Assembly (NCBI GenBank): GCA_051313645.2
Contig: JBNRSN020000008.1
Coordinates: forward strand, 74,400,001-74,464,000
DNA: 64,000 bases
Direction of reading: 5' to 3'
Source: Centroscyllium fabricii
Lineage: Eukaryota
The notes beneath the pieces are model-generated. The model was given only the letters and a program-made list of their open reading frames with translations. It made no database searches and was not told where the DNA came from. The translations under genes and the position numbers were made by a program. This document shows positions 5,489 to 38,967 of the stretch, piece by piece (the stretch's first letter is position 1; each line of letters opens with the position of its first letter).

Positions 5489-5805
5489 TGTAAGAAGTCA
5501 CACAACACCAGGTTATAGTCCAACAGTTTTATTTGAAATCACAAGCTTTCAGATCGCTGCTCCTTCGTCAGGTAAAGTGAAGAGATGCATATAGGCACAG
5601 CATATATAGTCAGAGAACAATGCTAGATGATTACAGGTAATTTTTCTAACTGCACTTTATCACACCTCGGCAGAGAGATAATCACCGCAATCAAAGGTGT
5701 AAATGGTGTCCAAACAGGTCAATCAGCAAAACATTCCATCAAAGAACAATGAGGTGGGGTCACAAGAGGTCAAATGTTGCACATGTTGTATGAAAAACAA
5801 ACAAA
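5489..5805 (-). mobile_element. Penelope-like terminal-repeat fragment with a hammerhead-like motif
   Basis: Homologous to 19824-20130. Minus strand reads TATA-like CTATATATG, then CTGACGA-AGGAGC-AGC-GATCT-GAAA-GCTT-GTGA, then AATAAA. Confidence 0.7.
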
Positions 5806-6333
5806 GCAATAAAAAATTTGCTGCATTTTAAAGTACATCACTATTGTTTTTGAGAAGTCTCTGCAGAATATTTTTGCCTTTTATGTAAAGCTATTTTGTG
5901 AAAACAATTATATTTTGGGATTGAACTATTGGTACATGACTTTGGGAAGTTGGGGGAGGGGGTGCTGGTGGTAGATGACCACGCACCTATGAATGCTACT
6001 TTTGAACCTTTGAATTAGCACCTTGCCTCGCCAAAACAGCCGTTCTGAGATTGGAACTTGCCGTGTGGGTAACTAGGTGAATTGCATCTTGCTCATCTGT
6101 TGTACGGTATTTTGCCACCAAGCTACTCCTTTCAGCACAAAATATTGATGCTCCTTTTTCTTCAATTCTAATTTTTTCAACATTAGAAAATAAAGACTTT
6201 CTGGAGGCTGAATGATGAGCAATGTGTACAGTTTGAAAACCACAGCGGTCACTTGGTACTCTAGTTGACCACAGATTCCTGCCGATTGTCTTTCATTTTT
6301 CATCACCTTGAATCTAAACATGTTTTTTTACAG

Positions 6334-6511
6334 CTTGAAAAACTAATTGAGAAAAATTACTACTTGCACAAATCATCACAGGAAGCTTACAAGTCTTATA
6401 TCCGTTCCTATGATTCTCATTCTCTGAAAGAGATCTACAGTGTCCGCACCCTGGATCTGCCCAAAGTGGCTCTGTCATTTGGCTTCAAAGTACCACCATA
6501 TGTCGATCTCC
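6334..6511 (+). CDS. DDX18: DDX18 penultimate coding exon
   Basis: 178 nt. Encodes LEKLIEKNYYLHKSSQEAYKSYIRSYDSHSLKEIYSVRTLDLPKVALSFGFKVPPYVDL plus 1 nt, followed by GTATCCTTTT. Confidence 0.95.
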
Positions 6512-7242
6512 GTATCCTTTTGCAATTACTTTATTTTTGTAGTGCAATTCTAAATTTAAGAAATTATATAAAAGCATTCCCTCCCTTCAAAAAAAATTAC
6601 AGTTCTTTTACTTTGCCTTTAGCCTTTTGTCAGTCTTAGAAAAAATAAACTTTCTGTTTCTAAGAGGGTGGAAACTGTTTCAAGTGAAGGCACTGAAGTT
6701 GGTATTTCATGGGATATTATACACGTGTAATTGCAAAAAAATGGTACAAGTGCCTGTGAGGTTTATTTTTAGTTGAAAATGTAATTTTTGCAACAAACAT
6801 CACAAGTGAGAGGTACTTTGAGATGTTTATAAACTTTGTTTTTTTAACCAGCTTGTCCCAAAGTCGCCACTTGCTTTAAAACAGAATTAGACAGATTGAT
6901 GATGTTTTTCCTTTCAAATAATGCAAAATAAGTTAGAATACTGTTTGAAAATAGCAAACTCTTAAACATTGTAGCATCTTTTTGTGCTAGAATATTGACC
7001 CAAGGTTGGTTAAATCAGAAGTCCCAATTGAAAACAAACTAGATTGTTCATTGCGACCATAAATACAGATCGTGTTTTTCTGTCACTAATTTAGCTGTAG
7101 ATTTTACTTAATTGTGATTCGCTTTCCACATTTCTCCCTTGTTCTCCCAGTAGCAATTTTTTGTTTTGAGGGTGGGCAGTCTTGGGAATTTTCCAGTCAT
7201 GGGGCTATTACTACCAAACCAAGCCCAGTCTCACCAACATCA

Positions 7243-7427
7243 CATAGATTTACATAGAGACACCCAACTGATCTGTGTCGACATTTATGCTCCACATGAG
7301 CCTCCTCCCACCCCTCGTCATCTCACCCTATCAGCATACCCTTCTATTCCTTTCTCCCTCATGTGCTTATCTGGCTTCCCCTTAAATACATCCATGCTAT
7401 TTGCCTCAACTACTCCTTGTGGTAGTA
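7243..7427 (-). mobile_element. Degraded CR1 3'-end fragment
   Basis: Reverse complement resembles a CR1 3' end (CTACCACAAGGAGTAGTTGAGGCAAATAGC...AAGGAATAGAAGGGTATGCTGATAGGGTG). Confidence 0.6.
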
Positions 7428-7716
7428 CTTGAGGTGAATATACACTTTAGAAAGGCTCACTGGATAGCTGTCTGGATTGGAGGTTTTGTGGGGAGGGGCA
7501 GTTGCCTTCCCAGCCAGTTGAACCACAACTTTACCTTCTGCACACCCTCCCCTGTATTATCCTTGGGTTAAATTGGCTAACTTAGCACAGTCTAGAGATT
7601 AAGCCTCAGACTTTTCGTATGTGTATAGAATATTTTTTATATATATATATATATATCTTATCTCTATCTATATATCTATCTATATGTGTGTATGTATATA
7701 TATATAATTACATATA

Positions 7717-8229
7717 CAGGTTGAGCACCGGTAATCCATAACCGAAACGCCGGCAACTTCAGTGGTCCGGTATAAATCGCCCCCACTGCGCATGCGCAAA
7801 ATGCCAGCCTTGATCGAGGCTTCGGCGAACGATCTGCGCATGCGCCGCCGAACGGCGAGCGCATGCGCAGATCATTCAAAACGGCTGCCGGATGTTTTGA
7901 ATGATCTGTGCATGCGCCGCCGGACAGCGAGCGCATGCGCAGATCATTCAAAACGGCCGCCGGAGGAGCTGGGCCTTCCGTGGCGTCAGGGCGCGGCGGC
8001 TCGCGCCACGTTTTAAATGTGCGAGTCCTGAGCGCCCACCATGGTGAAGCGCGCGGTTCCCTGGGGCACCCTGCAGGCCGTCATCAGGAGGCACACACAG
8101 CAGCTGAGACTCAGCAAGGACGTTTGGCGGCCATTTCCAATGTTGTGCGCATGCGCACGGACCGACTTCATTCATTCTATCGGTTTTTTCACTTTCCCGG
8201 CACGGGCCTGGTCCCGCCCGTGCTCAACC

Positions 8230-8231
<2 letters not shown>
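7717..8231. mobile_element. Tigger-like MITE inserted in a (TA)n/(TG)n tract
   Basis: TIRs CAGGTTGAGCAC / GTGCTCAACCTG. Internal ~70-bp repeats rich in GCGCATGCGC. Confidence 0.8.
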
Positions 8232-8318
<87 letters not shown>

Positions 8319-8345
8319 CTACATATCTATCTCCATATACATATA
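8231..8345. repeat. (TG)n(TA)n microsatellite
   Basis: Direct reading. A degenerate TA-rich tract also flanks the other side of the MITE (about 7637-7716). Confidence 0.95.
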
Positions 8346-8356
8346 TCTCCATCTCT

Positions 8357-9105
8357 GGCCCAAACAGTAGCCTCGGAGGCTTCCTGTGCGTGTATGCCTC
8401 AGAGGTCCACTTGCCCTGCGCTCCTGCCGTTCTGCAATTCTGCGATGTGAAATCCCAATTTGTAAAGCTGCTGCAGGCTCCAGGTGCCGTGCTGGTGTAA
8501 CTCAACGTTGTAGTTAGTGGGAGATCTCATGCGGGACCATGTGATCTGCAGGGAGCCAATGAATGGAAGCAATCGTCCATTCATAACTTGTGTAAAATCT
8601 GTGTAAGCTATGAAAAGGAAGAGCTTCAAAAGCACATCTAAACACAAAAATAAAATTTAAAGATCACATTTTTTAACAATACTCTAACATAAATTACCTA
8701 TTTTAAAGAAAAAATTAAAATTTAGAAAAAAAATTAGTTTTTAACTGGCCTAAAAAAATACTTGCCTGTCTTTAAAGTTTAAAAAAAAAAGTAAAAACCT
8801 GTAAGAAAAAAACTTAAACTCTATAAAATATAATACTTACCTGATAAAAAGGGATCGTTACAGCTGATATTTTTCAGCGTAACTTTTTCGATACTTACAC
8901 AGATAAAAAAAACTTTAAAAATTGGTATCCTACTGCTCACCTCCTGGTGCGCAGGTGAACGCGATATAGCTCACTGCAGCTTGCGACCCCCCGCTGGCCT
9001 CCATCGGAATTGCAGGTAGCACTGGGAAATAGCGTCTACCTGCAATTCGGAGCCCACACGCGTGAGTAAGTGGCTCCAGAACGGCCCGCGGTCACCCTAA
9101 TTTAG
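8357..9105. mobile_element. GC/AT/GC-structured non-autonomous DNA element, right end missing
   Basis: Starts GGCCCAAA. GC-rich ends with hairpins around an A/T-rich core, the same architecture as 42114-42825. No matching right TIR found; the element abuts the Rex1 LINE. Confidence 0.5.
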
Positions 9106-9109
9106 GAAA

Positions 9110-12100
9110 ACGAGAGCAGACCTCCGCTACAGCAGGCAAGCCCTTCTTGACATCGGGGCTGGCTGCGGGGCACTTTCACTGGGAGATCTCGATCTCCCAG
9201 CTGAAATTAACAAGGCAGCGGCAGCGTGGCGTTCAGCTGGGGGCCGTCAGAGGCCCAGAAGAGAGGCGAGAGAGCAGGGACCCTCGTCAGGCTGAAGAGG
9301 GCCCCTCTCAAACCCTCTCTGCCCAGCATCTACCTGGCCAACGTCAGGTCGCTAGGGAGTAAAATTGACGAAATCAAACTTGGCATCTCCACACAGACCA
9401 GGATCAAGGAATGCTGCGCCATGATCTTCACAGAGACCTGGCTGAACGACGGCATTCCAGACTCCGCCATCCAGCTGGCGGGTCACACGGTCTTCGGCGC
9501 CGACAGAACAGCCGACTCCGGTAAGAGCAAGGGAGGCGGCCTGTGCATCTACACGAACAACGCCTGGGGCACGAACGCGGAACTGGTCGAAAGTTCCTGC
9601 TCCGCCGATCTGGAATTCCTAACTGTAAAGTGCAGACCCTTTCACCTGCCTCGGGAATTCACGGCCGTCATCTTCACTGCGGTCTACACCCCTCCACATG
9701 CTAATGCCAAACTGGCACTAAAGGATCTCCACAGGGCCATCAGCGAGCAGCAGACCGCACATCCGGAGGGAGCCTTTATCGTGGCGGGGGACTTCAACCA
9801 CGCTAACCTCAAATCCGTACCACCGAAATTTCACAAGAATGTCTCCTGCCCCACGAGGGGCGAGAACACGCTGGACCAGGTCTCCACCAACATCGCAGAG
9901 GCTTACAAAGCCATCCCGTGCCCCCCACCTCGGGAAGTCTGACCACCTTTCACTGTTCCTCGCCCCAGCATACAAACCACTCATCAAACGGGTGAAAGCT
10001 CCAGCCAAAACAGTCAGGGTATGGCCAGAAGGGGCAGTCTCAGAGCTACAAGACTGCTTCGAACGCACTGAATGGAGCATGTTCGCTCACACGGACATCG
10101 AGGAATACGCATCCACAGTGCTTTTTTACATCAACAGCTGTGTCGAGGTGGTCACTACCCAAAAAACCATCAAGACATTCCCCAACCAGAAACGCTGGAT
10201 GAACGGGGAGGTCCGCTCGCTGCTGAAGGCACGTGACGCAGCTTTCAAATCTGGGGATGTGACGACTTACAGCACAGCCAGGGCCAACCTAAAGAGGGGT
10301 ATCAGGTCTGCCAAACGAAATCAGACACTGAAGATAGAGGAACACTTCCACAACAACTCGGACCCTCGGCGTATGTGGCATGGCATACAGTCCATCACGG
10401 ACTACAAGTGCAAAAACACCAGCCCCCCGACCAGCGATGCCTCCCTACCGGAGGAACTCAACAACGTCTACGCTCGCTTCGACAGGGACATAGAAACATA
10501 GAAACATAGAAGATAGGAGCAGGAGTAGGCCATTCGGCCCTTCGAGCCTGCTCCGCCATTCAATGAGATCATGGCTGATCATCCAAACCCAGCACCCTGT
10601 CCCGGCCTTCTCCCCATATCCCTCGATCCCTATCAAGCCTGCCTCGACACATAACCCACCCTATCCCCGTAACCCCACATATTCAATCCCCCTAACACTA
10701 AGGGTCAATTTATCATGGCCAATCAACCTAACCCGCACATCTTTGGACAATCGTGGCAACTATGCAATGGTATTCCAGAAAGAGTCAGCCCTTTCATGAA
10801 ATAATTGGGGATGGGTAGCGTGGGGGAAATTAGAAACAATGAAAATATAATCTTTGCTCAGTGGCTGTGCCTGTGCCTGTGAATAAGAAGGATGTGAGGT
10901 TCACCCCCGACTTAAGCAGGAAATCTAGATCTTCAGTGCAATACTGAGTGAGTGCTGCATTGTCAGAGGTGATACAGGGAGCCAGCCACCAAAGTCCTGC
11001 AATCTCCGGAAGACCAGTCACTAACTCCTCCGACGTAAGAGGTGCTCTACGTGGAGTGAACGCACGGAAGGCCGTGGGTCCTGACGGCATCCCCGGCCAG
11101 GCACTCAACGACTGTGCCGACCAACTGGCTGAGGTCTTCACCGACCTCTTCAACCTGTCACTGGCGAAGGCAGCTGTCCCTACCTGCTTCAAGACCGCCA
11201 CCATCATCCCTGTGCCCAAGAAAACGGCCGTGACGTGCCTGAACGACTACCGACCTGTCACACTCACACCCATAATCATGAAGTGTTTCGAGCGGCTGGT
11301 CCTGGCCCACATCAAAGCCAGCGTCCCCGCCGCCCTGGACCAATACCAGTTTGCCTATCGAGAAAACAGATCAACGGAAGATGCAATCACTGCGGCTCTT
11401 CACTCTGCACTAAACCACCTGGATATCAGAATGCTGTTTATTGACTACAGCTCAGCATTCAACACCATCGTCCCCAGCAAGTTGTCTACCAAACTCCTCA
11501 TACTCGGCCTGAACACCTCCCTCTGCAGCTGGACCCTGGACTTCCTAACCAACAGACCAAAGTCTGTGAAGTTAGGCAACCTCACCTCCCCCCCCCCCCC
11601 CCCCCCCTTACCCTGAACACAGGGGCCCCACAAAGCTGTGTGCTGAGCCCCCTCCTCTACTCCCTCTTCACTCACGACTGTGCGGCTGTCCATGGCTCCA
11701 ACACGATCATCAAGTTTGCGGACGACACCACGGTGGTTGGCCAGATCACCAACAACGATGAGTCAGCCTACAGGGATGAGATCCAGCGCCTTGTGGGATG
11801 GTGTGCCGATAACAACCTGGCACTGAACACCAAGAAAACGAAGGAGATCATAGTGGACTTCCGGAGGACTGAAAGCAGAAGACACACCCCCATCTTCATC
11901 CAAGGGGCTGAGGTGGAAAGGGTGTCCAGCTTCAAGTTCCTCGGGGTCCACATCTCTGAAGACCTCTCCTGGTCACTAAACACCTCCTCTCTGGTTAAGA
12001 AGGCCCAACAGCGCCTGTACTTCCTAAGGAAGCTGAAAAAAGCCAAGCTGTCATCCGACATCCTCTCCAACTTCTACCGCTGCACAATCGAAAGCATACT

Positions 12101-12557
12101 GACAAGCTGCATCACGGTCTGGTATGGAAACTGCACCATCTCGAACCGGAAGGCCCTGCAGCGGGTAGTCAAAACTGCCCAACGAATCACCGGCACCCAG
12201 CTACCGTCAATTGAAAGCATCTACCTCAAACGCTGCCTACGGAGGTCTCTGAACATTATTAAAGACCCCACACACCCCAGCCACAGTCTGTTCACCCCCT
12301 TGCCCTCCGGGAGACGCTACCGATCAATTCGCACCCGCACAACTAGATTCAAGAACAGCTTCTTCCCCAGGGCTGTCAGCCTCCTGAACTCTTAACAAAA
12401 AACTCCGGTACCTGCACACCTGAAAATTTACTTTACTGTATGCAATTGTATGTAAATTATTTGCACTACTCTCTGGAGCGGCGAGTCTTCATCTTGTTGT
12501 ATTGTACTAGTACTCTGCAATGACAATAAAACTTGAATTGAAGAATTGAATTGAAAA
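9110..12557 (+). mobile_element. Rex1/Babar-type LINE, near-complete endonuclease-RT ORF with a few frameshifts and one insertion
   Basis: ORFs 9226-9942, 9839-10501, 10948-11616 and 11640-12395 give APE motifs (LANVRSL, TETWL, GDFN, SDH), RT motifs (GPDGIP, QFAYR, KFADDT) and a C-terminus ending RTRTTRFKNSFFPRAVSLLN. 3' tail is AATAAA plus (GAATT)-type repeats. The 5' boundary is approximate. Confidence 0.85.
10489..10748 (-). mobile_element. 5'-truncated HE1-like V-SINE inserted into the Rex1 element
   Basis: Reverse complement matches the 3' ~240 nt of the full SINE at 37104-37494, with a (CTATGTTT)n tail. Confidence 0.85.
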
Positions 12558-12984: not shown

Positions 12985-13113
12985 GTATGTCAGGATGTGT
13001 CTGTAGATGCAGGGTCCTGTGCGCCTGCTAGAAAGCGTTGGACGCCGAGCGGCTCCGCAAACTGAAGAATTTGTGCCGAACCACCGGGTGCCGGATTACC
13101 GGTGCCCAACCTG
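12985..13113. mobile_element. One-ended Tigger-like MITE fragment
   Basis: Ends in GTGCCGGATTACCGGTGCCCAACCTG, matching the TIR of the MITEs at 7717 and 40942. Confidence 0.6.
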
Positions 13114-14022: not shown

Positions 14023-14053
14023 CTACGGTATTCCATGTTTCCACATACAAGTA

Positions 14054-16200: not shown

Positions 16201-16785
16201 TGTTACTCTAACTAATGTTAAGTGAATTGTCGTGATTTTTAATGCGAATAATAAAGCCGAAAGCAATAGTCAGCTAACAATGTTTGGATCAGAGGGAAAT
16301 CATGCCATAGAGTAACAGGTAAATCGCCCCATGTCAGTATGTAAAGACGGGAGACATGATGATCTCAAGGCTCTATGTCTTTCTGGGAACAGGTGTCTTC
16401 CATTTCTGTGTCTCATCAACATGGTTATCACGTACAGGGTTTAATGTTACAAATTGCTCAGTCCTTGAACGGTATTTGCATAGAGCGGTGATGCTCAGCA
16501 TCAGGTGTGGGCTTCTTGGGAGAGCTTTGAAGTGGTAATGTTGAAGAAAAGCGCTCTCCTCTGTCTGGTAAATGAATGCACCAACTGAACGATCCAGGAT
16601 GCACTGGTCTTCTTTGATCAAGTTGAAAACCATGGAAGATATATAAAATAAGATATAAAAAATGTTGGACCATAATTTGCTGTGGCGGGGCATATAGGCT
16701 CAGCTCGCTGCAAGAGGGCATCTTCCCACTGCGGCTTGTTGGGGATGAAGCTAACTTGCGTGTTATTTCGCTAAAGCTGTGAATC

Positions 16786-17484
16786 ATGTGCCTCAACGGG
16801 TCCTTGTTCCTGAATGAAAGCTCGGGGAGCCGCAGCCTGAGGGGAGAATCGTTCACTGTCTTTCGGATCCTGATCGTGACTCTGTTGGCCCTTCTCATCA
16901 TCGCCACCTTCGTGTGGAACTTGCTGGTATTGGTGACTATCCTGAGAGTGAAGACCTTTCACCGAGTCCCGCACAACCTGGTGGCCTCCATGGCCGTCTC
17001 TGATGTGATGGTGGCCGCCTTGGTGATGCCGCTCAGCCTGGTCAACGAGCTGTTGGGGAGGCGCTGGAGGCTGGGCAGGGTCCTGTGCCATGTCTGGATT
17101 TCTTTCGATGTCCTCTGCTGCACCGCAAGTATCTGGAACGTTACTGCCATTGCCCTGGACAGGTTCTGGTCCATCACCAGGCACCTCGAGTATACGCTAA
17201 AGACCAGAAAAAGGATCTCCAACATCATGATTGGCCTGACTTGGGCGCTCTCCGCTGTCATCTCATTCTCTCCCCTTTTTGGCTGGGGCGAGGCTTACTC
17301 CGCCGACGAAGAGAACTGCCAAGTCAGCCAGGAGCCCTCCTATACCATCTTTTCAACCTTTGGGGCCTTCTATTTGCCTCTCTGCGTGGTTTTGTTCGTA
17401 TATTGGAAAATCTATAAGGCTGCCAAGTTCAGGATCGGGAACCGTAAGAGGAATGCTGTTGTCCCCATGGCCGAAATACTGCAG
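16786..17484 (+). CDS. HTR5B: 5-hydroxytryptamine receptor 5B, exon 1 (TM1-TM5)
   Basis: ATG preceded by an in-frame TGA. 233 codons including [51 protein letters not shown] and STFGAFYLP. Donor CAG|GTAAAA. Confidence 0.9.
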
Positions 17485-17948
17485 GTAAAAGAGTTTCTGT
17501 ATTCGCTCACCCACAACCATCAGATCGCTCCTGTCCAGAGGCACATCCACCACCACCATACATGTAGTGACTGCTCCAACCCACAAAGGCCAGCCGGTTA
17601 TCCCATTACACTATTGGAGCAATTATAATATATTTTGGTAAAATATTTATTCTAGTGCAATCTTAAAAGCCGCACAACTCCGGGTTGCTGACGCACTTTC
17701 ATATATGTCCGATAACCAACCTGTCGAAGTGGACTCGGCTGATTTGTTGGTGTGAAATGACCGCTGATCATCTGCAGAACAGACCAGAGAGCTGACCCCA
17801 GTCTGGGCTGAGAAAGTTCAGCAACAGTTGAATGCTAAACTCCGGGCAGAGAGCAAGGTCAAAAACAACCACAAGTGCAATATCGGTACCATTTAAAATA
17901 TTTTTGGATCAAAAATAAAAACAAACAGGCAACAATGCGTATTATTAA

Positions 17949-18174
17949 CATAGAAGATAGGAGCAGGAGTAGGCCATTCAGCCCTTCGAGCCTGCTCCGC
18001 CATTCAATGAGATCATGGCTGATCATCCAAACCCAGCACCCTGTCCCTGCCCTCTCCCCATATCCCTCTTGAGCCTGCACTGACACATATTCCACCAACC
18101 CCACATATTCAATCCCCCTAACACTAAGGGTCAATGTATCCTGGCCAATCAACCTAACCCGCACATCTTTGGAC
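17949..18174 (-). mobile_element. 5'-truncated HE1-like V-SINE in the HTR5B intron
   Basis: Matches the 3' part of 37104-37494. Confidence 0.85.
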
Positions 18175-19091
18175 CTAACCTGGCAAACTTATCCACAGTT
18201 TACATATTCACCTATTTTTGCTTCAAGCACTCTTTCCAAATGATAAAAGTAAAATGCCTGGAATCGATTTTAAAATGCCTAATTGTAGAAACACTGTCAG
18301 CGGATAAAATCAGAGGTTGGGTATCGCCAGCGCTTCAAAATGAGCCGCTCACTGTTTCACCGGCTGTCGAGGGGACGGAGTGACTGAGGAGAGGGGACAG
18401 TGTCTGGAGAGAGGACGGGGCGTTCGAGAAGTTACTGGGGGGAGACGGTGTTAAAGGGCCGGACTGTCGTGTGTGTTATTCCTTATCCGAAAACAAAGCA
18501 GAGTCAGCGACTTGAGCGGGATGATGAAAAGGCTGAGAGCATCAAAGGGAAAGTTGGGGTCGCGGGGGAACATGGCAGCAAGCGCTCTGCTTTCGGGCAA
18601 CCCTGAATTTTTCAATGATGTCTGTTTAATTCTGGACTAAAAGACTAATGGTCCAGTAACTCTCACAATGTGCTCCAGTATTTGAGTTTATAGTTTTGAT
18701 TGGAATTTCCCCGATATTAAAGTACCTCAATTGTGAAAGTGGGGCTGAGCACCGAATGTAGTTCTCAATAATTCGCCCCAGTCCTTCACACGGTGGTTTT
18801 ATTGATCCGTTTTCTTAAATCACAGTAATATGAGGACAGGGCATTAGAATTGATATTGCTTAGATACAAATAAGGCAAATGGATTTCTAATTAGTAATAT
18901 GGTGACAATTTAGTCCATACCGATGCCTTAAATGGTCAGTATGAGCGAGTGTTACTATTCTCGGGTTGAAGTAATCATTCTATTCTGGTGCAGTATTGAG
19001 GGGGATTGAACATTCAGCGCGGAAGAAACCCCGCATTGCTTTGTCCTGCTCCCTGCGATGATGATGTTTTAACCCGTGAACCTTGTTGTAG

Positions 19092-19424
19092 GTGAAGGAA
19101 GCCAGTCACCAGCCCCAGATGGAGTGTGCGGTCCGACACCCCGCCCTGACCTTCCAGGCGGACGGAGAAGCTTGGCGCCAACAGAAGGAAAAGAAGGCAG
19201 CGGTGATGGTGGGGATCCTGATCGGGGTCTTCGTCCTGTGCTGGACCCCGTTCTTCATCACTGAACTGCTCAGTCCCCTGTGCTCTTGCAACATCCCCCC
19301 GGTCTGGAAGAGTATATTTGTCTGGCTGGGTTATTCCAATTCCTTTTTCAATCCTCTCATCTACACAGCTTTCAACAAAAATTACAACAACGCCTTCAGA
19401 TATTTATTCATAAAGCAGCGATAA
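19092..19424 (+). CDS. HTR5B: 5-hydroxytryptamine receptor 5B, exon 2 (TM6-TM7, C-terminus)
   Basis: Acceptor TTGTAG|GTG, phase 0. Contains [20 protein letters not shown] and the C-terminus [16 protein letters not shown], closer to 5B (..TKQR) than 5A (..SRQH). Position between DDX18 and CCDC93 supports 5B. Confidence 0.9.
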
Positions 19425-19692
19425 AAGATTCGATGTAAACGGATGAATCTGCCCTGAAGTTACTGAACAACAGTAACATTCCGCCCGTGTAACTGATCAA
19501 ACATGCTTAATACTTCATTCTATTTCATCTCTGTTTATAAAGCTTAGAGATCTCTAGTCTGGATTATAAAAACATACCAATTGTTTACTGTGTTGTACTA
19601 CTTGATTTTATTATTTCGAAAATGACTCATTAAATTAAAGGTGATGTCGGCGGGATTCCCTTAGTGGAACAGAATCACCTCCTTTCTATAAC

Positions 19693-20167
19693 AATGTAAG
19701 AAGTCCCACAACACCAGGTTAACAGTTTTATTAGAAATCACAAGCTTTCGAAGCGCTGCTCCTTCATCAGGTGAAGTGAAGAGATGCATATAGGCACAGC
19801 ATATATAGTCAGAAAACAATGCTTATTTTTTTTGTTTGTTTTTCATACAGCATCTGCAACATTTGACCTCTTGTGACCCCACCTCATTGTTCTTTGATGG
19901 AATGTTTAGCTGACTGACCTGTTTGGACACCATTTACACCCTTGATCTACCGAGGTGTGATAAAGGGCAGTTAGAAAAATTAACTAATCATCTGGCATTG
20001 TTTTCTGACTATATATGCTGTGCCTATGTGCATCTCTTCACTTCACCTGATGAAGGAGCAGCGCTCCGAAAGCTTGTGATTTCAAATAAAACTGTTGGAC
20101 TATAACCTGGTGTTGTGTGGCTTCTTACATTTGTCCACCCCAGTCCAACACCAGCATCTCCACAAAA
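19693..20167. mobile_element. Fold-back Penelope-like insertion
   Basis: Inverted arms 19695-19822 / ~19996-20129. Flanking direct repeat TTTCTATAAC at 19683-19692 and 20168-20177. Confidence 0.8.
20043..20079 (+). ncRNA. Minimal type I hammerhead ribozyme motif
   Basis: TCAC-CTGATGA-A-GGAGC-AGC-GCTCC-GAAA-GCTT-GTGA: stem I TCAC/GTGA, cores CUGAUGA and GAAA, stem II GGAGC/GCTCC, palindromic AAGCTT in place of a full stem III. Confidence 0.7.
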
Positions 20168-22029
20168 TTTCTATAACTATAATGAGGGCTTACTCTCCAA
20201 GACACCGACACTAACATCTTTCAGCTCCCGATCAAAATTATTCATACAATCCCAAATAAAACACATCGGTATTTTATTATTTAAGATATTGCCTATATTT
20301 GAAATTATATAATATTCTCAGTTATATCTTCAGTAAGTTGTTATTTTAATATATGATGGAATAATTGCAGCTTTAAAACCATGTTTCTGAGTGAACTGTA
20401 AATCCTTTTTGAATATTGATGTATACAATTCTTTTTTGTTTCATACTCCTAGAATATAAGTGTGCTCTTAGTAGATAGGCTGAGAGAATACTTGTTAAAG
20501 TGATATTTTATTTATAATATGATAGTTTGTAAATGGATAGTTGGTTTATGGTCACAGTTTAGTAAATTTACTGTTCTGACGCTATACTGAAACTTTAGGG
20601 TGTTTTGTAAAATAACTCCAGGACAAATTTACTGTCCCCCCGTCCCGTCCCCGTCCCCCCCAATTCCCCATCTCTCCTGGAGGTGCTGACTCCTTTCTGA
20701 GCTATCAGTGCTGGCTAGTGTCCTCTGATATTTAACCCCAACTGATCATTCATGCCCGAGCCTTGCCAGTGGGTATCAGCAGGCTTTACCATATTGAGGG
20801 GTGAGGGATGAACAGCTGAGCCTCATCCTGTCCACGGTCACACATCCAGTTGCTTTTAACATGAGAGTTTAAGTTACACAGGTACAAAAATGGCAACCCT
20901 TTAATATATTGTATTATCATACAGCTGTAAATTGTACCATTGCTAATAACATTGTGTGTATAAATTACTTAATTATTCTTAAATATTTATAATATTTATG
21001 TAACTATTGGAAAACATTGATCTTAAAATAAAAAGGGTTGGAGTTCTGTCACTGGGTCAGGTGTTTAAATGACTGAAGATTCAAGTTTGCTTCATAAACC
21101 TGTGGACAGCTCAGAGTTACAGGTGTAACGCCTATAGTGCCTGCTCTGAACTGCTGGTTGCATTCTGCTCATTTTACAGGCTGTTAACTGGTATAAATAT
21201 TATTTACTCTTTGTGCTCCATTGGCTGTTAAAGCTGGTAACTGGTACATTTGCAGATGCAGCATCTTACACATAAACGGAACAACTTCTGTACATGGCTT
21301 TCCATCAGTAAGGCAGAGCTATTTAAGAATTGTCCATCAGATCATTTAACCCACTAAATCCCTTTCTGTGATTGGTTTATCTATTGATTCCTTTCTCTCC
21401 ACCCCCTTTTCCCCAACTTTACTAAAATGCTTGTTTATCTTTTAGTCTTCAGTTCTAATGAAGGGTAAACACTCAATACCTATATTTTCTTTTTGAAGAT
21501 GCTGACTGACCTGCTATGTATTTCCAAAAGCTTCTGTTTTTATTATAGATTTCGAGCTTTTGCGGTTTTCTTTCTAATGCCCATATGCACAGTACACATA
21601 CGTATTTAGTTAATGCTGACTATTTCTCATTCTGTGACTGCAAAAAGTCATTTTTATAGACCATAGTAGTTATTCTTTTGATAGTATTTCAGAATTATTC
21701 TATGTTAAGATCGTACATGGAGATTGTAACCTGTAGAATAAACAAAATTTATGCCTCCAATTTTGGACTGCAGATCATTGCATTATTTGTTCAAATATAG
21801 GAACAGATTAATTTCCTATTCCAATTAGTCCCTAAACAACCTCATTTAATTGATCCAAAGCATATACTTTAAAATTGTGTTACAATGTTAGTTTAAATAT
21901 TTATATTTCACACGTTAATGCTGCAAAGAACTCCCCTTCCTTCCCGTGCTGTAATCATCAGCTGATGCAATTCATCCCCTTGGAAGAAACTCTGTATTCA
22001 ATTGTTTATCATCTGTAATAGCACACTTA

Positions 22030-23190
22030 TTGCAGAAGCATACGAGAGCATAGGCCTTACACTAAACATCTGTAAGACAAAGGTCCTTTACCAACCTGCC
22101 CCCGCCACACAGTACTGCCCCCCAATTATCAAAATCCATGACAAGGCCTTGGACAACGTGGACCACTTTGCATACCTTGGGAGCCTACTGTCAACAAGTG
22201 TAAGAAGTCACACAACACCAGGTTATAGTCCAACAGTTTTATTTGGAATCACAAGCTTTCGGAGCACAGCTCCTTCATCAGGTGCATGTAAAGAGATTCT
22301 CTTTACATGCACCTGATGAAAGAGCTGCGCTCCGAAAGCTTGTGATTTCAAATAAAACTGTTGGACTATAACCTGGTGTTGTGTGACTTCTTACATTTAT
22401 CCACCCCAGTCCAACACCAGCACCTCCACATCATGGCTACTGTCAACAAAGACAGACGTCGATGACGAAGTCCAACACCGCCTTCAGTGTGCCAGTGCAG
22501 CCTTCGGTCACCTGAGGAAGAGAGTGTTTGAAGACCAGGACCACAAACCCGGCACCAAGCTCATGGTCTACAGAGCAGTCGTGATACCCACCCTCCAGTA
22601 TGCCTCAGAGACATGGACCATGTACAGCAGGCACCTCAAAACACTGAAGAGGAACCACCAATGCTGCCTCCGCAAGTTCCTGCAAATCCATTGGCAGGAT
22701 AGGCGCACCAACATCAGTGTTCTCGCTCAGGCCAACATCCTCAGCATCGAAGCTTTGACCACGCTCGATCAGCTCCGATGGATGGGCCACATCATCCGCA
22801 TGCACGATACGAGACTCCCAAAACAAGCGCTCTACTCGGAGCTCCAACAAGGCAAGAGAGCCCCAGGTGGGCAGAGGAAATGCTTCAAGGACAGCCTCAA
22901 AGCTTCCTTTAAAAAGTGCATTGACACCTGGGAATCCCTGGCCCAAGATTGCACAAAGTAGAGGAGAAGCATCCGGGAAGGTGCTGAACACCTCAAGTGT
23001 CTTCGCCGGGAGCAAGCGGAAGTCAAGCGCAAGCAGCGCAAAGAGTGCACATCAACCCAAGCACCCCACCCACCTGCCCCTTCAACCACCATCTGCCCCA
23101 CCTGTGACAGCGACTGTAGGTCCCACCTGTGAACTCATTTTTAATGTGGAAGCAAGTCATCCTCGGTTCCGAGGGACTGCCTAAGAAGAA
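22030..23190 (+). mobile_element. RTE-clade LINE, 3' part
   Basis: GLTLNICKTKVLYQP, FAYLGSLLS, ASAAFGHLRKRVF, QLRWMGHIIRM and RLPKQALYSEL; ends in AAGAAGAAG. Interrupted at 22198-22436. Confidence 0.85.
22198..22436. mobile_element. Palindromic Penelope-like insertion with hammerhead motifs on both strands
   Basis: Near-perfect hairpin 22199-22395 with a 3-nt loop. 13-bp target duplication CTACTGTCAACAA at 22185-22197 and 22437-22449. Confidence 0.85.
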
Positions 23191-27124: not shown

Positions 27125-28023
27125 TGGGCCCTGTTTTCCTGTGGCCCGATTGCTGCGGGTGCGCGCTCACGTGCACCCGCGGCGCACGCGCACGTAATTT
27201 TTTTTTTTCTGACGGCAATTTCCTGTGGAAAATGCCGGGTTTTTTTCCAGCGTAGGGGTCTGGTTTTTTTTGGTGCGTGGTGCAAGCCACGCCCACTGAG
27301 GTCGGCTTTCCCCCCGCACAAAGCACAGAATCGGCCTGAGGATAAAGAATATCGGGTAGGAAGCACCTTTTTTTTGTTTTTTTAAAGTTTCTAGGAAGCT
27401 GTTTTTTTTAAGTTTCTGCCTTTTCTGCTGTTAGGGTGTTTTTTTTTGCTCCAAGTGAAAAAAACACGTTTAAAGTTGGTTTTTTTTGATTCCTTTGCAA
27501 ATATTTGTCTGTGGTCTTTCAGCTTGTAAATGGGTAGGGTTTTTTATTTTTTGGTGAAAGTGAAAAAAAAACGGGTTTTGAACGCGATGTCAGCAGCTGT
27601 GATGGCCATCAGAGCTGCTGACATCGCGTTCAAAACCCTTTTTTTTTTCACTTTCACCAAAAAATAAAAAACCCTACCCATTTATAAGCTGAAAGACCAC
27701 AGACAAATATCTGCAAAGGAATCAAAAAAAACCTTAACTTTAAATGTGTTTTTTTCACTTCTCAAAGCTGCCTGCAGCCCTCTAAGACTGCTTTTTAAAT
27801 GTGCAGCAAAAGAGAGACTTGCCCACGTGATGCACACGCATTTTGAGCAGCTGCCACAGGAAATCTGCAGCTCAGTCTTCCTGGGTAGGAAGCTGAAGCC
27901 CCTTGCCCATCAGCACAGGAAATTCACGTTTCTGGTAATCACCCGAGCTGCACCCCCACGAGGCATTTCTGACCCCCCTTCGTGGGGGTGCAGCTCTTCT
28001 GGAGCACAGGAAAACAGGGCCCT
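27125..28023. mobile_element. Palindromic MITE with a ~300-bp internal inverted repeat
   Basis: TIRs GGGCCCTGTTTTCCTGTG / CACAGGAAAACAGGGCCC, AT flanks. Second copy in the opposite orientation at 50167-51081. Confidence 0.85.
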
Positions 28024-28587: not shown

Positions 28588-31500
28588 AAATGGAAATTAA
28601 ACATTTGTTTGAAAGATTACACCATATTTCTTATAGTGGGTTATCAATGGATGGATGTTCTTTGTGTACCCAATATTTATCCTCTAGCACAGTCATAATA
28701 GCCAAATATAACCAGTTTAAAATAATGCAGAATTGAAATTTGTTATCAAATGGAATAGGCTGAGGTAAACAATAAGGTTAGTTATGTCAGACTTTGCATA
28801 TGATAGAAATCGCAATATCAGTGTAATGGCGGAACTTAGGAGATATGCCTTTAATCAGGGATATATATTTATTGATGTCCATAATTTACACTGTACTTGA
28901 ATATGAATTGTTCTGAGAGGACCATAACAAACGATTTAAAATATATGAAATTACCGCGGTGATATTGGTAGTTTGCAGTATTTTTATTTCAAGGTACTGA
29001 CCTGAAGTCCTTTGTGTTTGACAAACAGTTTACTCCTGATAATCTAAAGATATTTTGCACTAAAATGTGAATTATTCATTAGCACTATATTCCTGCTTAA
29101 TTCAGGTTAAACAATTGAATTCAGATCGATTTTTAATTACGAGTAGACTCTAAATGATGCTAGTTTCCCATGTAAGAATAGGACTTGATTACACATTGCA
29201 TAAATATTTACGTCTGGCTGCCCCAGCCTTGGTAAAGTAATTATCGGTCAATAGGAAACAAGATTTCTAATCAATTCATTTCTTTATTAACAACGACTAA
29301 ATGCAATAAACACACAGATTAGTAATACTAGAAACAACATAATGCTTCTCTTTGTAGGGTCGGCTCGACAGGATTTAACAGATGCGGCAGGATCAGCTTC
29401 TTGCACAGTTTAATCAAACCAATCTTTGGCAGTCTGAAGCTGCGGTAAAGCAGAGTTCACCCAGAGCCCTTGGGATCCTCTCCTGGCCGCTGCTATCCAA
29501 AATTCCAAGGAAGTTCGCTATCCGAGATTCCCCGCTCTCTGGATATTGGTTTTGTTAATATGTTACGGGAGTTCTTGAATACCTATTAAACTGGCAATGC
29601 ATTCAGCATATACAATTCAATTCTTAATACGCCAGTAGAATACAGTAGTTAATCTCACGCCATATGAATACATAAATATTGTAATCCGTTGCGCTTCAGT
29701 CTATATAATTATTTAATACAAGATCAAAGCCTGTTCTCTATGCAAACCCTTTCCCACTACAGAAAGTCCGGCTGCAGTCTCCATCTCTACTTTGGCCACC
29801 TGTGAACGCATCAGGTTTTCTGGTCGAGAACCTCGATTCCTTTTCTTTTCATGTAACAATGTAGACTCAGGCCCCATACCCCAGCTTTCACCGGAAGAAA
29901 TTGGGATCGTTTTATTTATATGATCTAGATTTTTTTATAGAAAGAAAACTTTTACTTCTTACTTTGAATCGCATATGTCGGGACAAAATTCTCTCTTCAC
30001 TGGTTGTTGATCTTGAAATACTGAGTTACTTGCATTAAATTTCTTCAACGGTGCTCGAATGTATTTTGTGAATGTATTAAATCGTTTTCATTTGCGACTA
30101 AGCACATCGCACTGGATGTTGCACCGGTTGCAGTCGACTGTTTATCGTGAATGAAATGTGGGCTTGGACCAGGGATGAGGACCTTCTTGCGGAAAACTGT
30201 CATTTATTTTACAAGAAGTTCTATTCCAATATTCACTTACAGAAATAAGGAGAGAAGGGGAAAAACTAAAAGGAACAACGTACAAAAGAGCAAGGACGCA
30301 GATTAAATCGAAAATGAAATGAGTGGAATGATGAAAAACAACTGAGTCAAAAACAGAGGAGAAAATGAGCAATCCAGCAGGAATCAATTCTGTAAGGAGC
30401 AGACAGCACAAGGAACAATAACTATATTCAATAGCATTGAGGTACATTCAATAGAAAAGCAATGGTTGCAGACGTTTTCATTTCTTTCACTAGCACCCAG
30501 CAGTGGGAGACTTGAGGCGGAGCACAATAGAATCATTGACAGCCGATGCAAGGGGGAGATTAGTGCTCACTGTGTAGGTGGATAAACAAAAGGCCAATTA
30601 AACCAATAGAGCAATCCACAATACAGCAGCAATTTGAGGGGAAAACGGTTCAACAAAAACGCAAAACATTAATTGCAATATATAAACCTTTCAATACCAA
30701 ACCGCTCAGTCGTAACTAGGCACTACTAGCTGGGGCAAATCATAGAAGATAGGAGCAGGAGTAGGCCATTCAGCCCTTCGAGCCTGCTCCGCCATTCAAT
30801 GAGATCATGGCTGATCTTTAGCAAGCTAGTACCCCGTCCCCGCCTTTTCTCCATAACCTTTAATACTAAGAAACAAAATATTTATTGGCAACTCAATACC
30901 AAATAAATTAGCGCCAGCATTTTTATATATTTTCCTGTGCTTTTTGTACCACTCTTTAGTACAGAGCAAGATATTCATTTTAAATGAATCTAGAATCGTG
31001 GACTAATATAAGTGGGTCATTATAAAATAATAAGTTGGTGCCATACAATACTAATATAATGCAGCCCCAGGAAAAATATAATTATTTCCCACAATTTGTA
31101 TGGAAATTGAGAAGTTAGTTATATTCTTACTTGGAACCCGTGTCTTTGTACATGCAGAAAGGTAACATAGGAATAGAAGAAAGCTTGGAAAAGTAAAGAC
31201 CAGTCAATTGCGCCCATTTTTCAACAGATCAACGCTCTTTCATGATTTTATCCAATTAATGTTGTCACCTTTGGACAAGATATTAAACCCAGGTCTGGGC
31301 CATTTGCTCTGGTGGTACCAATGGATGTTAAAAATCATGGCCCAATTTGAAGAGGTGGAGGAGGCTCTCCCAGGTTACTGGCCAATATTACTCCTTCAAC
31401 CAACACAGCAAAAGTAGTTTGCTATTTATGAGATCCTGCTATGTGAAAAATGGCTGGCACGTTTGCCGACGTAACAGGCATAGAAGTTGAAAAAATGATT

Positions 31501-34819: not shown

Positions 34820-35625
34820 CCAGCACCACATTCCCCATGATCAATTGGTTCCTATCTTTATGCTGCGGTATCAAAGCAGCGCCTCGATTTCAAAGTTCAC
34901 ATCCCGGTTTTCAAATCCCTCCATGGCCTCGCCCCTCCCTACCTCTGTAATCTCCTTCAACACCACAATGCCCCCCCAAGTTAACTGCACTCCTCTAATT
35001 CTGCCCCCTTGAGCATTCCTGATTATAATTGCTCAACTTTTGGTGGCCGTGCCTTCTGTTGCATAGAATGATAGAAGGTAGGAGTAGGCCATTCGGCCCT
35101 TCGAGCCTGCTCTGCCATTCAATGAGATCATGGCTGATCATCCTAACCCAGTACCCTGTCCCTGCCTTGTCCCCATATCCGTCGATCCCTATCGAGCCTG
35201 CACCGATACATATCCCACCCTATCCCCGTAACCCCATATATTCAATCCCCCTAACACTAAGGGTCAATTTTTCATGGCCAATCAACCTAACCCGCACATC
35301 TTTGGACTGTGGGAAGAAACCGGAGCACCCGGAGGAAACCCACGCAGACACGGGGATAGTACCCGAGGCCGGATTGAACCTGGGTCTCCAGTGCTGTGAG
35401 GCAACAGTGCTAACCACTATGCTACCCTGCCTAAACCTCTCCGCCTCACTACTTTTCTTTTCTCCTTTAAGACACTCCTTAAAATCTAGCTTTGACCAAG
35501 CTTTTGGTCATCTGCCTATATTGATCCTTGTGGCTCGGTGTCAAATTTTTTGTCTTAAAATACTTGCAGCGCCATGGGATATTTTACTATGTTAAAGGTG
35601 CTATACAAATACAAGTTGTTGTTGT
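34820..35625 (+). mobile_element. L2-type LINE 3' end containing a V-SINE insertion
   Basis: Typical L2 tail ...CTCCTTAAAA...TTTGACCAAGCTTTTGGTCA...TGTTAAAGGTGCTATACAAATACAAGTTGTTGTTG. Confidence 0.6.
35062..35431 (-). mobile_element. HE1-like V-SINE with an internal deletion
   Basis: Reverse complement has the tRNA head, part of the V-domain and the composite tail seen at 37104-37494. Confidence 0.85.
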
Positions 35626-37103
35626 TATCACTAAGACAATGACTTTGGGAGTGGGGTGCAGAACACCCTGTTCCTATAAAACCTTAGAATTAGCAAAAGC
35701 AACACCACAGGAGTTCCACTAGTATAAAATAAAAGACTATAACCACTAGTGTGCACAAGGGTGCAATGCAATTGCTTTTAATTTAATGCTGGCATTTCAT
35801 AGAGATATAAAAGGTGGCTCAGGTGGTTAATGCAACAATGAATCAGTGCAATTGAGTCTTGGTACAATGCTGTTCTTTGTCTGGGCCGACATCAGAAACC
35901 AAAAATATTACCAGAGTACCACTATATTTTGTATAACAAAAAGAAAACAGAACCCCACCCAATAAACGTTAAATGTTTTGTTGGAAGAATCTTTCATTTC
36001 CATAAATACAATAGTCAATTGTACTTGACATCCATTTTAATATTTCTTTTTTGTATTGTTTTCTTCTGTAATACTGAAATTAAATAAATCAATTATTTTT
36101 CCAGTAAAAATTAACTTTGCTATCCCTAGCTGCAACACAATTCAAAATGTTTATTATTTGCTTGTGATTTTCCCTGGTTTACTTACTCCTGCTACCTTTA
36201 TTAAACAGTTCTGCCTCAATTTCCTTTGGCCCCAATTTAAGTGACATTAAACGAATATGATTGACTGTCATCAACAATGGACAAATTATGATTCTTTTCA
36301 CCTCTAATTTAATTAATACAGGTTGTGGATTCTTATATGACTGTAAAGTCTAATTTTCAAGAGAAACATTTTCCCCACACAGGACATCAGATGCCAGGTT
36401 GACCAAAGGGCTGATCTTTGATTTCCTTTGGCCTTTTTCCAGCTAACTAGATACTACTTGCTTCAAGCTTTGTCGTACCATCGTGAATGATCATTTGCCA
36501 CTATCCTGTCACAAGCAGCATGCGCTCATGTGTCAGTTGAGATGCCACAGATTGGTCTTCAGGCAATCCTTACCTATTTTGAACTGACCAAAACACTCTT
36601 TACCGAGCTTCAGCTCACTGAAGAATACCTTCTTGGTTAAAAAAAATCCTATCAGTCATTTGGACTGAGTGACTGCCAAACTTAGCTGTGCCTTTAGCAT
36701 CATCGCCTCTATACCTGGCATATTTGCTTTCCTGAGGACCTTGGAGCCTTGTGCCACTATCAAATTTTGATGATCTTTGAGGCAACCACCCAGATGGAAA
36801 TGAGTTTTCCGATGTGGCAATTGTAAATGGTCCACCTATTACATACATACAGCAGGAATGTTATAAGTACTGCCTTGTAAACCAGTTTTACTGGCCGTTT
36901 AGTGCCCCTTTTATCCCATAACCTCAACAGAGCCTTCCAAAAGCACGACTGGCTTTATAGTCTGAGGCTCACTTCATCATTTAGGAGCACATCACATGAC
37001 CTGGCATTCTCTCGATAGACACACCTATCTACTATAGCCAGTGTGCCCTTTGATGGCATTATTGGGTGATGCACAAGGTTTTCCAGGGGCAGGCTGGTAT
37101 ATT

Positions 37104-37494
37104 GCACAGTGGCAAAGTGGTTAGCACTGTTGCCTCACAGCTCTGGAGACCCGGGTTCAAATCCAGCCTCGGGTACTATCTGTGTGGAGTTTGCACATTC
37201 TCCCCGTGTCTGCGTGGGTTCCCTCCGGGTGCTCCGGTTTCCTCCCACAGTCCAAAGATGTGCGGGGTTAGGTTGATTGGCCATGATAAATTGACCCTTA
37301 GTGTTAGGGGGATTAAATATGTGGGGTTACGGGGATAGGGTGGGATATGTGTCGGTGCAGGCTCGATAGGGATATGGGGACAAGGCAGGGACAGGGTGCT
37401 GGGTTTGGATGATCAGCCATGATCTCATTAAAATGGCAGAGCAGGCTCGAAGGGCCGAATGGCCTACTCCTGCTCCTATCTTCTATGTTTCTAT
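37104..37494 (+). mobile_element. Full-length HE1-like tRNA-derived V-SINE
   Basis: Pol III A box TGGCAAAGTGG (37110-37120), B box GGTTCAAATCC (37154-37164), V-domain TGTGTGGAGTTTGCACATTCTCCCCGTGTCTGCGTGGG...CTCCCACAGTCCAAAGA, CR1-derived tail. Confidence 0.9.
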
Positions 37495-38796
37495 AACTTC
37501 CATCTTCTTCACACACAGGCCAAATTTATACAAGCATCCAAGAAATGGTTCATGATGACTTGGCTCTCTGCTGCATAGGGAACAAAATCACAATAATCAA
37601 ACAAGAGTTCCTAAACAAGTTCTTCAGATGTCTTGGTTTTGGACTGCAGGAGGTGGAGATTGTACAATTTGTATCAGGGCCTGAAGTAAATACACTCACT
37701 TATCCAAATTCCTGAAGACATAAGCAAGCACAGAAGCAAACTAAATAAGGTAGGAGCTAGAACACAATGCCATTTGACTACACTGAAACACTCTATTATA
37801 TGAACACAGGAGATTTTGCTTTTGATATCCTCATTGAAGTAATTTATTCATATTATAAATTCAGACCTGGAGCACTCCTTTCCTGCTTGAACACCTCTCA
37901 TTTATGACCATCTTAACTAATTATTTATCCCACACCATATTTTCTCTTAATCTGTAACTAACATTTAACATGGAACTTTTGTCAAATATGTTTTGAAAAT
38001 CTAAGTCTATTAACATCTCTGGCATTTCCATCATAGCAGCAAAAAAGGTCCAGCAATTTAGTCCAGCACAATCACCCCTCCCTGAATCTATTCCAGCTAT
38101 CCCTCTTCAAAACGAAATTTCCTCTTTGTCTCTACCTTTTTGTAAAGATCTTGATGTGCAGATTTCATTTCCATAGCCAAGTGTGTTTTTGAGGACTGAG
38201 TCATTATTCTTAGTCAGTGCAAGTGATTTCTGGATTTTGTTAATGAGACAAACCCCACAGATGATCTAAAGAACTCAGCCATTTAACTATCACATATATT
38301 GAGGTATTTAATATTAATTATACATAAAAAAGGTTAAAATGCCAAACTTAAATTGGGGAAAAGGAAATTTAGAAGCGATATTAGGAAAAACTTAACTCCA
38401 TGCATATTTTTGGAAATATCCTACTAGACAGGGCATATTGTTCAAAATGCATTTGGATACCAAGTTGGCATCTAGTTGAATGAGACTCAATCCAATGTTC
38501 TTCTCATGTGCTCAAAGATTTGGTCTGTGTCTTGGGTTGCAGAAATGGTTGATCTACACATCTCCTCTCTTCTAGCTTTTACATCAAAATACTGTAGTTA
38601 CCCACAAGCTGCTGTGAACTGCACTTGCCCACTTTGTATCTAGTTAGACTCAGCCTTCTGAGTATCAAATCCTTGTAAGACAATTGACTGGAGGAGCCCG
38701 ATGTGAGATAATTGATATTAAAGCAAAATAACCATGAATACTACAATTGTGGCAATGATGAGAAATGTAATAATTAGTTAAAACACAGGTTCAATC

Positions 38797-38967
38797 ACTG
38801 ATGTGGAGGTGCCGGTGTTGGACTGGGGTGGACAAATGTAAGAAGTCACACACCAGGTTATAGTCCAACTGTTTTATTTGAAATCACAAGCTTTCGGAGC
38901 GTTGCTCCTTCATCAGGTGTAGGATGAAGGAGCAACGCTCCGAAAGCTTGTGATTTCAAATAACTGT
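38797..38967. mobile_element. Short fold-back Penelope-like insertion with a hammerhead motif
   Basis: Intact motif on the minus strand (38885-38919) and a truncated inverted copy. Direct repeat AGGTTCAATC at 38787-38796 and 38968-38977. Confidence 0.8.

Follow-up and report, generated by a model that had tools for sequence, protein, structure and literature searches.

Four insertions in a window of the Centroscyllium fabricii genome (the whole 64,000-nt stretch of DNA that was analysed) are probably 5′-truncated 3′ ends (pseudo-LTRs) of an endonuclease-bearing Penelope-like element (PLE) family of this shark. Three of them display a one-sided tail, a fold-back structure and target-site duplications (TSDs) of ~10 bp, which together are the published signature of truncated endonuclease-bearing PLE insertions, and the family looks like a further shark example of a known, abundant class rather than a new ribozyme-driven system. 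The best explanation of the hammerhead found in these copies is that it belongs to the terminal repeat of the parent element and is a decaying passenger here, while it is probably under selection in active source elements. PLEs have been reported in the whale shark (PMC8455134), and cartilaginous fish are represented neither among the 56 PLE hammerhead motifs of a published alignment (Fig. S3) nor in the accompanying Table S1 (PMC4209133).

A 25-nt hammerhead-type pattern matched the window seven times (three exact matches, two with one mismatch and two with two) and gave no match in 100 shuffles. BLAST and nhmmer recovered the identical seven arms, arranged in four insertions (A–D) that total 1,209 bp or 1.9% of the window, and neither method found a further copy in the window (next nhmmer match, E = 0.11). 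The original prediction of four insertions with a common hammerhead motif was thus borne out, as was its description of three fold-backs with TSDs of 10–13 bp: these measure 10, 13 and 10 bp in B, C and D, and A has none.

Table 1 Features of the four insertions (positions within the window)
Insertion	Feature	Position	Strand	Remarks
A	Single tail-less arm, ~320 nt	5489..5812	-	BLAST
A	Degenerate hammerhead	5540..5574	-	Two stem II changes and one stem I change; fails descriptor
B	Left TSD, 10 bp	19683..19692	+	BLAST
B	Short inverted arm, tail-less	19693..19823	-	7-nt internal deletion
B	Hammerhead in short arm	19738-19774	-	Stem II includes one G-U
B	Long arm, ~345 nt, with tail	19824..20167	+	Head-to-head with short arm
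B	Intact minimal type I hammerhead, long arm	20043..20079	+	Descriptor, folding, published consensus
B	Tail	20130..20164	+	Tails occur on long arms only
B	Right TSD	20168..20177	+	
C	Left TSD, 13 bp	22185..22197	+	Within ORF of RT-bearing LINE
C	Short inverted arm, tail-less	22199..22297	-	
C	Intact hammerhead in short arm	22250-22284	-	Descriptor
C	Long arm with tail	22298..22436	+	
C	Hammerhead in long arm	22310-22344	+	First stem II pair broken
C	Tail	22396-22436		Ends in ATGG
C	Right TSD	22437..22449	+	
D	Left TSD, 10 bp	38787..38796	+	
D	Long arm with tail	38799..38919	-	
D	Intact hammerhead in long arm	38885-38919	-	Descriptor
D	Short arm	38923..38967	+	Begins within hammerhead core
D	Right TSD	38968..38977	+	

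The motif has the features of a minimal type I PLE hammerhead (core, bulge, G10.1-C11.1, palindromic helix III and NUH), which supports the proposal of a minimal hammerhead with a palindromic helix III. With the published motifs (PMC4209133, Fig. S3) it shares CUGANGAH, a bulged base before stem II, G10.1-C11.1, GAAA-G-C-U-H, a palindromic 4-bp intermolecular helix III and U-rich 5′ and AU-rich 3′ flanks, whereas the shark stem II differs in having 5 bp with a 3-nt loop; the GAAA-G-C-U-U form is present in the Chrysemys picta and Philodina roseola rows of that figure. Helix I has 3–4 bp across the family, and the B long arm joins a 4-bp helix I, CUGAUGA, a bulged A, the 5-bp stem II and GAAA-GC-UU. 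Likeness to known hammerheads also supports the predicted cut after U17 which, by analogy, would lie between 20075 and 20076 in the B long arm. A minimal-hammerhead descriptor was satisfied by four of the seven arms and had no match in 10 shuffles. The view that stem and cores are mostly kept therefore holds for those four arms but not for A, the C long arm or the D short arm, which are altered, the last being without the 5′ strand of helix I and C3-U4. Loop II does vary, as had been noted, but in three source variants and not four, because TGC and TGT are two arms of one insertion; these two differ by a C-to-T change at a CpG. An Rfam search with E up to 1 returned 13 matches, with no hammerhead family and none on insertions A–D; curated models miss such a minimal form.

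Three of the four insertions have an inverted, 5′-truncated partner arm at the 5′ end, joined to the long arm with an overlap of 0–4 nt or a few extra bases; the junction in C is a near-perfect palindrome. A tail of 35–41 nt, which holds a site resembling a splice acceptor, is found on all three long arms of the fold-backs and on none of the other four arms. Relative to C3, the ends of the long arms fall at +117 to +123, those of three tail-less arms at +82/83; these two 3′ end classes, ~38 nt apart, cover six of the seven arms, and the D short arm stops ~35 nt short of the usual tail-less end, at a third position of about +48. The TSD of C gains independent support from its host LINE, whose reading frame (...YLGSLLST on the left, TDVDDEVQ... 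on the right) resumes across the 252 inserted nt, a multiple of three that includes one TSD copy.

This arrangement closely resembles that of endonuclease-bearing PLEs such as Penelope/Poseidon and Neptune, the latter a clade with a zinc-finger linker. In these elements an inverted 5′-truncated copy and a one-sided tail of 30–40 bp are typical (PMC8557442, PMC3846280) and TSDs measure 8–10 bp (PMC3846280). Further points of likeness are the head-to-head arms, the hammerhead upstream of the tail, the palindromic junction (as in C) and solo copies without a TSD (as in A; PMC3846280; PMC8557442; PMC11167929), and the Penelope-like origin originally proposed is supported. PLE hammerheads have been described as dual motifs on opposite strands 100–700 bp apart and, mostly, as single motifs from truncated PLEs (PMC4209133). 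Inverted arms and TSDs exceeding a few bases might also suggest a miniature inverted-repeat DNA transposon carrying a hammerhead-like motif by chance, but the arms are asymmetric with the tail on one side only, TSD length varies, truncation makes the central part variable, and four arms match the descriptor against none in shuffles, which leaves this explanation scarcely credible.

If the insertions are truncated PLE ends, a GIY-YIG endonuclease would first make cuts staggered by 10–13 nt, as the TSDs suggest, the enzyme itself being assigned from the family. Reverse transcription would then begin inside uncleaved element RNA, at the tail end or at the tail-less point ~38 nt away; the two end classes are observed, and internal initiation is proposed from experiments on anole Poseidon. 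Tail length has been equated with the span separating two RT start sites, and unprocessed RNA is an RT substrate in vitro (PMC11167929); in line with such a substrate, all seven arms extend across the cleavage site, where none begins or stops. Synthesis would halt early, and a single event would yield both this arm and a second, inverted one, primed either at the other nick or by fold-back self-priming. Both arms would derive from one source sequence because they have variants in common, namely four substitutions (three in C and one in D). The arms would finally be joined head to head across the short overlaps or extra bases described above. Set against the truncation reading are the lack of a link to RT or GIY-YIG sequences, the D short-arm end that fits neither start site, the missing TSD of A, the arrival of A and B at one T-rich tract on the 5′ side, and target sites that are not notably AT-rich (AT 0.53–0.64 versus 0.57 for the window).

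The family had originally been interpreted as retrozyme-like and ribozyme-processed, an interpretation that found no support: the window has no tandem unit, every arm crosses the cut site, and the 5′ ends of five of the seven arms are scattered. The two longest arms, those of A and B, are non-coding and 324–345 nt in length, within the ~150–450 nt retrozyme range, and non-LTR retrozymes are similarly non-coding elements of 150–450 nt with a type I hammerhead and a proposed pLTR origin (PMC7229834; bioRxiv 10.64898/2026.07.22.740005). However, the shark copies are inverted rather than head-to-tail, are not tandem (none of the eight arrays in the window overlaps a copy, so that head-to-tail units are missing), have ends set by PLE-type tail positions and carry a minimal motif without the 6-bp helix I and loop 1-loop 2 contacts of the canonical type I form. 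In a true retrozyme, dimeric hammerheads would cut the RNA, a circle would form and rolling-circle reverse transcription would follow. A circular template could likewise give arms that cross the cut site, and the isolated motif folds helices I and II (stem II P 0.93–0.95; helix I P 0.81 for a fragment of 56 nt). Yet the copies in the window show neither direct repeats nor permuted junctions, sequence from 3′ of the cut site is not found again on its 5′ side, whereas a circle would place it there, and in the three fold-backs helices I and II both have P = 0.00 on either strand, the ribozyme of fold-back transcripts being buried within a hairpin in these models. Moreover, the definition of non-LTR retrozymes was based on tandem repeats carrying canonical type I motifs (PMC7229834), although the 2026 preprint (bioRxiv 10.64898/2026.07.22.740005) admits minimal motifs; that preprint reports cleavage of one of nine Xenopus dimers, and minimal hammerheads cleave poorly even as dimers according to a review citing Lunse et al. 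(PMC6765202). We consider a true retrozyme very unlikely.

A second rival is a SINE-like derivative of PLEs that is itself non-autonomous: a solo pLTR of ~330 nt would be transcribed from its own promoter and mobilised in trans by PLE protein, and A and the B long arm would then be full-length, C and D truncated. Should tandem arrays be present outside the window, the copies could be called 'monomers' of a non-LTR retrozyme family, as broadly understood in the same preprint. The promoter lies in the pLTR (PMC2377424), which is sufficient for mobilisation in trans (PMC3846280), and the preprint describes pLTR-derived families with monomers and an average chondrichthyan retrozyme consensus length of 363 bp (bioRxiv 10.64898/2026.07.22.740005). 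Within the window, A and B reach one T-rich tract and no trace of an ORF remains upstream of A, where six-frame translation up to the neighbouring DDX18 exon revealed no GIY-YIG or RT; A is inserted in the intron preceding that exon, antisense to the gene.

The original prediction that the two longest copies share a defined start nevertheless stands only as homology to one tract. The comparison comprises two copies and no third long one, pairwise homology must end at the shorter copy, and the 5′ end of the B long arm is determined by an inversion junction that is T-rich and ambiguous. The edge of A is undefined within the T-rich interval 5805–5818, and A has neither TSD nor partner arm, within 200 bp or out to 20 kb. 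The 5′ offsets of the seven arms from C3 are -235, -235, -54, -16, -15, -3 and +2, so that five of seven arms are variably truncated with scattered 5′ ends, the outcome that had been named as pointing to truncated autonomous copies, and the window lacks a tandem unit. The copies in the window neither demonstrate nor refute a defined non-autonomous ~330-nt unit, and we regard the SINE-like derivative as unlikely.

The long copies have, as predicted, no coding sequence: stops interrupt all six frames of both, the longest open stretch is 63 aa, and no Pfam match was obtained. This distinguishes them from full-length endonuclease-bearing PLEs, whose ORF encodes a telomerase-like RT and a GIY-YIG endonuclease, and is expected for truncated copies. 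Active PLE copies are arranged as a partial tandem, pLTR-ORF-pLTR, and the window holds no such long copy. An ATG where the tail ends, in one of three long arms, is the only candidate start codon, and, in contrast to anole Poseidon, every frame between the hammerhead and the tail end is interrupted. The suggested search for an autonomous RT and GIY-YIG element ending in the repeat found no linked partner in the window or in protein searches. Pfam detected no GIY-YIG domain among 90 of the 94 window ORFs of at least 100 aa (four microsatellite ORFs were left out), and RT matches in window ORFs fell outside the insertion family. None of six candidates emerged as an adjoining PLE ORF when the 63-aa frame was compared with longer proteins, and the 32-aa tail frame had no match among 1.84 billion representative proteins, both being weak negatives. 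There was also no match for ORF 30145-30447 in the PDB, for the element in a plasmid blastn search, or for either of two patterns in GTDB scans for host contamination.

Sequence variation gave little sign of selection on the ribozyme in these copies. Private changes affected 6 of 219 ribozyme cells versus 11 of 585 flank cells (P = 0.42), and the proposed check for excess core conservation was negative (core 1/103 versus flanks 11/585, P = 1.0). In the covariation check, likewise proposed, none of nine pairs had a two-sided change, but the seven near-identical arms diverge too little for this to be telling, and folding z-scores for the motif and three tail regions reached only -1.4 to -1.7. 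Of the substitutions shared by both arms, two lie in the 3-nt loop II, two in the flanks and none in the 32 core, stem and bulge columns; this loop II enrichment (rough P 0.009, post hoc, from two events) is only a hint.

Insertion B follows a serotonin-receptor gene, ~260 nt beyond its stop codon. The four best among 120 listed relatives of this receptor are from sharks, which supports the shark host originally proposed; as judged from sequence, B could give the 3′ end of this gene a 127-bp hairpin and an AATAAA.

The origin of PLE inverted repeats and tails is still described as an open question (PMC8557442), and a literature search on Penelope inversions and twin priming returned no work on the PLE mechanism by title. 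One quite improbable idea is that the palindrome of a self-standing ~330-nt pLTR mainly pairs two RNA templates, so that a dimeric PLE protein would prime both nicks, one per internal start site. Such pairing would be comparable to the role of a retroviral dimerisation signal. Hints in this direction are the source variants common to both arms and the stopping of both arms in C and D no more than 1–5 nt apart, near the 5′ edge of the ribozyme, but fold-back self-priming, already proposed, explains the same data. Template pairing, if true, would give head-to-head, tail-asymmetric insertions and explain the conservation of a poorly cleaving ribozyme. The modest value of the truncated PLE ends described here is mechanistic: B, C and D are short, young fold-backs bounded by TSDs, and such fold-backs, in thousands, would be good material for distinguishing dual priming from fold-back.

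Re-examination of the window bore out the four insertions of the original prediction (copies A–D; see table), whose observation as a whole is confirmed as real and whose interpretation is partly supported. The hammerhead motif pattern matched seven times in the window versus zero in 100 shuffles, and BLAST and an nhmmer profile recovered the same seven hammerhead-bearing segments (arms) with no further copy. A minimal-hammerhead descriptor was passed by 4/7 arms and by no site in 10 shuffles; an Rfam search of the window gave no hammerhead match. The motif follows the metazoan minimal-hammerhead consensus of Penelope-like elements (PLEs) presented in PMC4209133; Fig. S3 there gives the GAAA-G-C-U-U form for Chrysemys and for Philodina, and its entries include no cartilaginous fish. 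Copy A is a single arm without target duplication (TSD); B, C and D each consist of a long and a short arm folded back head to head, with TSDs of 10, 13 and 10 bp, as claimed.

Arm ends were numbered in the ribozyme sense from hammerhead nucleotide C3. The 5' starts lie at −235 (A and B long), −54, −16, −15, −3 and +2. The 3' ends form two classes, +82/83 (A, B short and C short) and +117 to +123 (all three long arms), so that a 35–41-nt tail is confined to one arm; D short ends near +48, outside both classes. None of the seven arms has a boundary at the predicted cleavage site (+28/+29). Arms differ at 6/129, 3/98 and 0/41 sites within insertions and by 2–10% between them, and both arms share private variants in C and in D, indicating one source sequence per fold-back. 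The junction is a near-perfect palindrome in C and has 3 additional bases in D; in B it is T-rich and ambiguous, and the arms may overlap by 4 nt. Both a branch-like motif and an acceptor-like one occur in the tail, which terminates at ATG in C only; from these motifs we infer that an intron and ORF start may lie here. In each of B, C and D, two upstream stretches offer alternative pairing partners for the tail (8–9 bp each), enclosing a loop that contains or adjoins the tail-less end; the z-score of folding in this region is only −1.4 to −1.7.

Taken together, copies A–D show every PLE structural feature testable here, behave overall as a PLE end and are probably truncated insertions of an endonuclease-bearing PLE. 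The TSDs, two 3'-end classes, same-source inverted arm and cut-site read-through are observed directly. By analogy with anole Poseidon, as described in PMC11167929, both target strands would be cleaved, initiation would be internal at two sites bounding the tail, the template would be uncleaved RNA and the ribozyme would be protein-assisted and dispensable for insertion. The second arm may have been primed at the second nick, or it may stem from self-priming, a route put forward in PMC3846280. Against the PLE picture, the searches linked no ORF to these copies, D short ends at a third site, target sites are not notably AT-rich and, unlike in the anole element, no frame is open through the hammerhead.

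No search made found a PLE-defining ORF in or linked to the four copies, the two longest (A and B long arm) showed no coding capacity, and the 520-bp stretch separating A from the DDX18 exon gave no Pfam match in six frames. A SINE-like solo pseudo-LTR (pLTR, the PLE terminal repeat) mobilised in trans is a distinctly less likely reading. As preprint 10.64898/2026.07.22.740005 includes monomers derived from pLTRs and gives chondrichthyan families an average length of 363 bp, this non-autonomous reading too would be of an already known kind. A literature search, with repeat libraries outside its reach, found no published description of this shark PLE-like family.

Of the proposed retrozyme-like PLE family, the PLE origin is supported and the retrozyme-like processing is not. 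Tandem units and a canonical ribozyme characterise non-LTR retrozymes; copies A–D form no tandem units within the window and their motif is not canonical. A circle-forming retrozyme is very unlikely, and a MITE, as a reading of these copies, more improbable still. The proposed defined ~320–340-nt unit rests on two copies: A and B long do reach the same point, but homology of two truncated copies always stops at the end of the shorter. The 5' end of B long is its inversion junction, and that of A has T-rich low-complexity sequence and no TSD, partner arm or third copy bounding it. With no Pfam match in the 520 bp beyond A, the shared edge may be a genuine start, or it may mark a hot spot of truncation.

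In an active dimer, intermolecular helix III would be a predicted 4-bp AGCU duplex (−2.5 kcal/mol). Compensatory changes occur in 0/9 hammerhead base pairs, and post-insertion changes are about as frequent in the ribozyme (6/219) as in flanks (11/585; P=0.42). Of the four substitutions common to both arms, two lie in the 3-nt loop; core and stems have none, which hints slightly at constraint acting on the source elements. Predicted hammerhead helix probability is 0.00 on either strand of the three fold-back transcripts because the antisense arm pairs with these helices, making the present copies unlikely as working ribozymes.

Coordinates of features in the window
Feature	Position	Detail
Copy A	~5489–5812	in intron preceding DDX18 exon
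T-rich sequence	5805–5818	5' edge of A
DDX18 exon	6334–6510	
LINE copy	9211–12395	long; endonuclease and RT remnants
SINE-like repeat	~10500–10750	splits this LINE
5-HT5-like receptor gene	~16783–19424	two exons
Receptor ATTAAA	19629	weak poly(A) signal; stretch including B: 19629–20260
Copy B	19693–20167	~260 nt downstream of receptor stop codon, directly beyond ATTAAA
AATAAA in B	20085	canonical; receptor strand
Tail pairing, B	20094–20151	
Copy C	22198–22436	
~900-bp element	27127–28020, 50167–51082	opposite orientations; ~20-bp terminal inverted repeats
Internal palindrome	27478–27733	~256 bp, no spacer
Copy D	38797–38967	
85-bp duplicate	47740–47824, 48340–48424	600 bp apart, 92%; splice-donor-like motif, minus strand
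Inverted LINE pair	53311–56158, 61610–63999	large; arms 89–94% complementary

Among other repeats, the putatively MITE-like ~900-bp element gave no hammerhead descriptor match and sub-threshold Rfam microRNA matches, and ORFs within or adjoining the inverted LINE pair matched RT, endonuclease and OSK/GDSL-like Pfam families.

Copy C breaks the ORF of an RT-bearing LINE, presumably of the RTE clade, whose reading frame resumes across the empty site and whose relatives (49–63% identity) include several annotated reverse transcriptase domain proteins. The best 4 of 120 listed relatives of the 5-HT5-like receptor are sharks (top identity 92%), so the shark assignment holds. The order of DDX18 and this receptor presumably agrees with the DDX18–HTR5B synteny of other vertebrates. 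Copy B, which brings the AATAAA, may alter the 3' end of the receptor mRNA.
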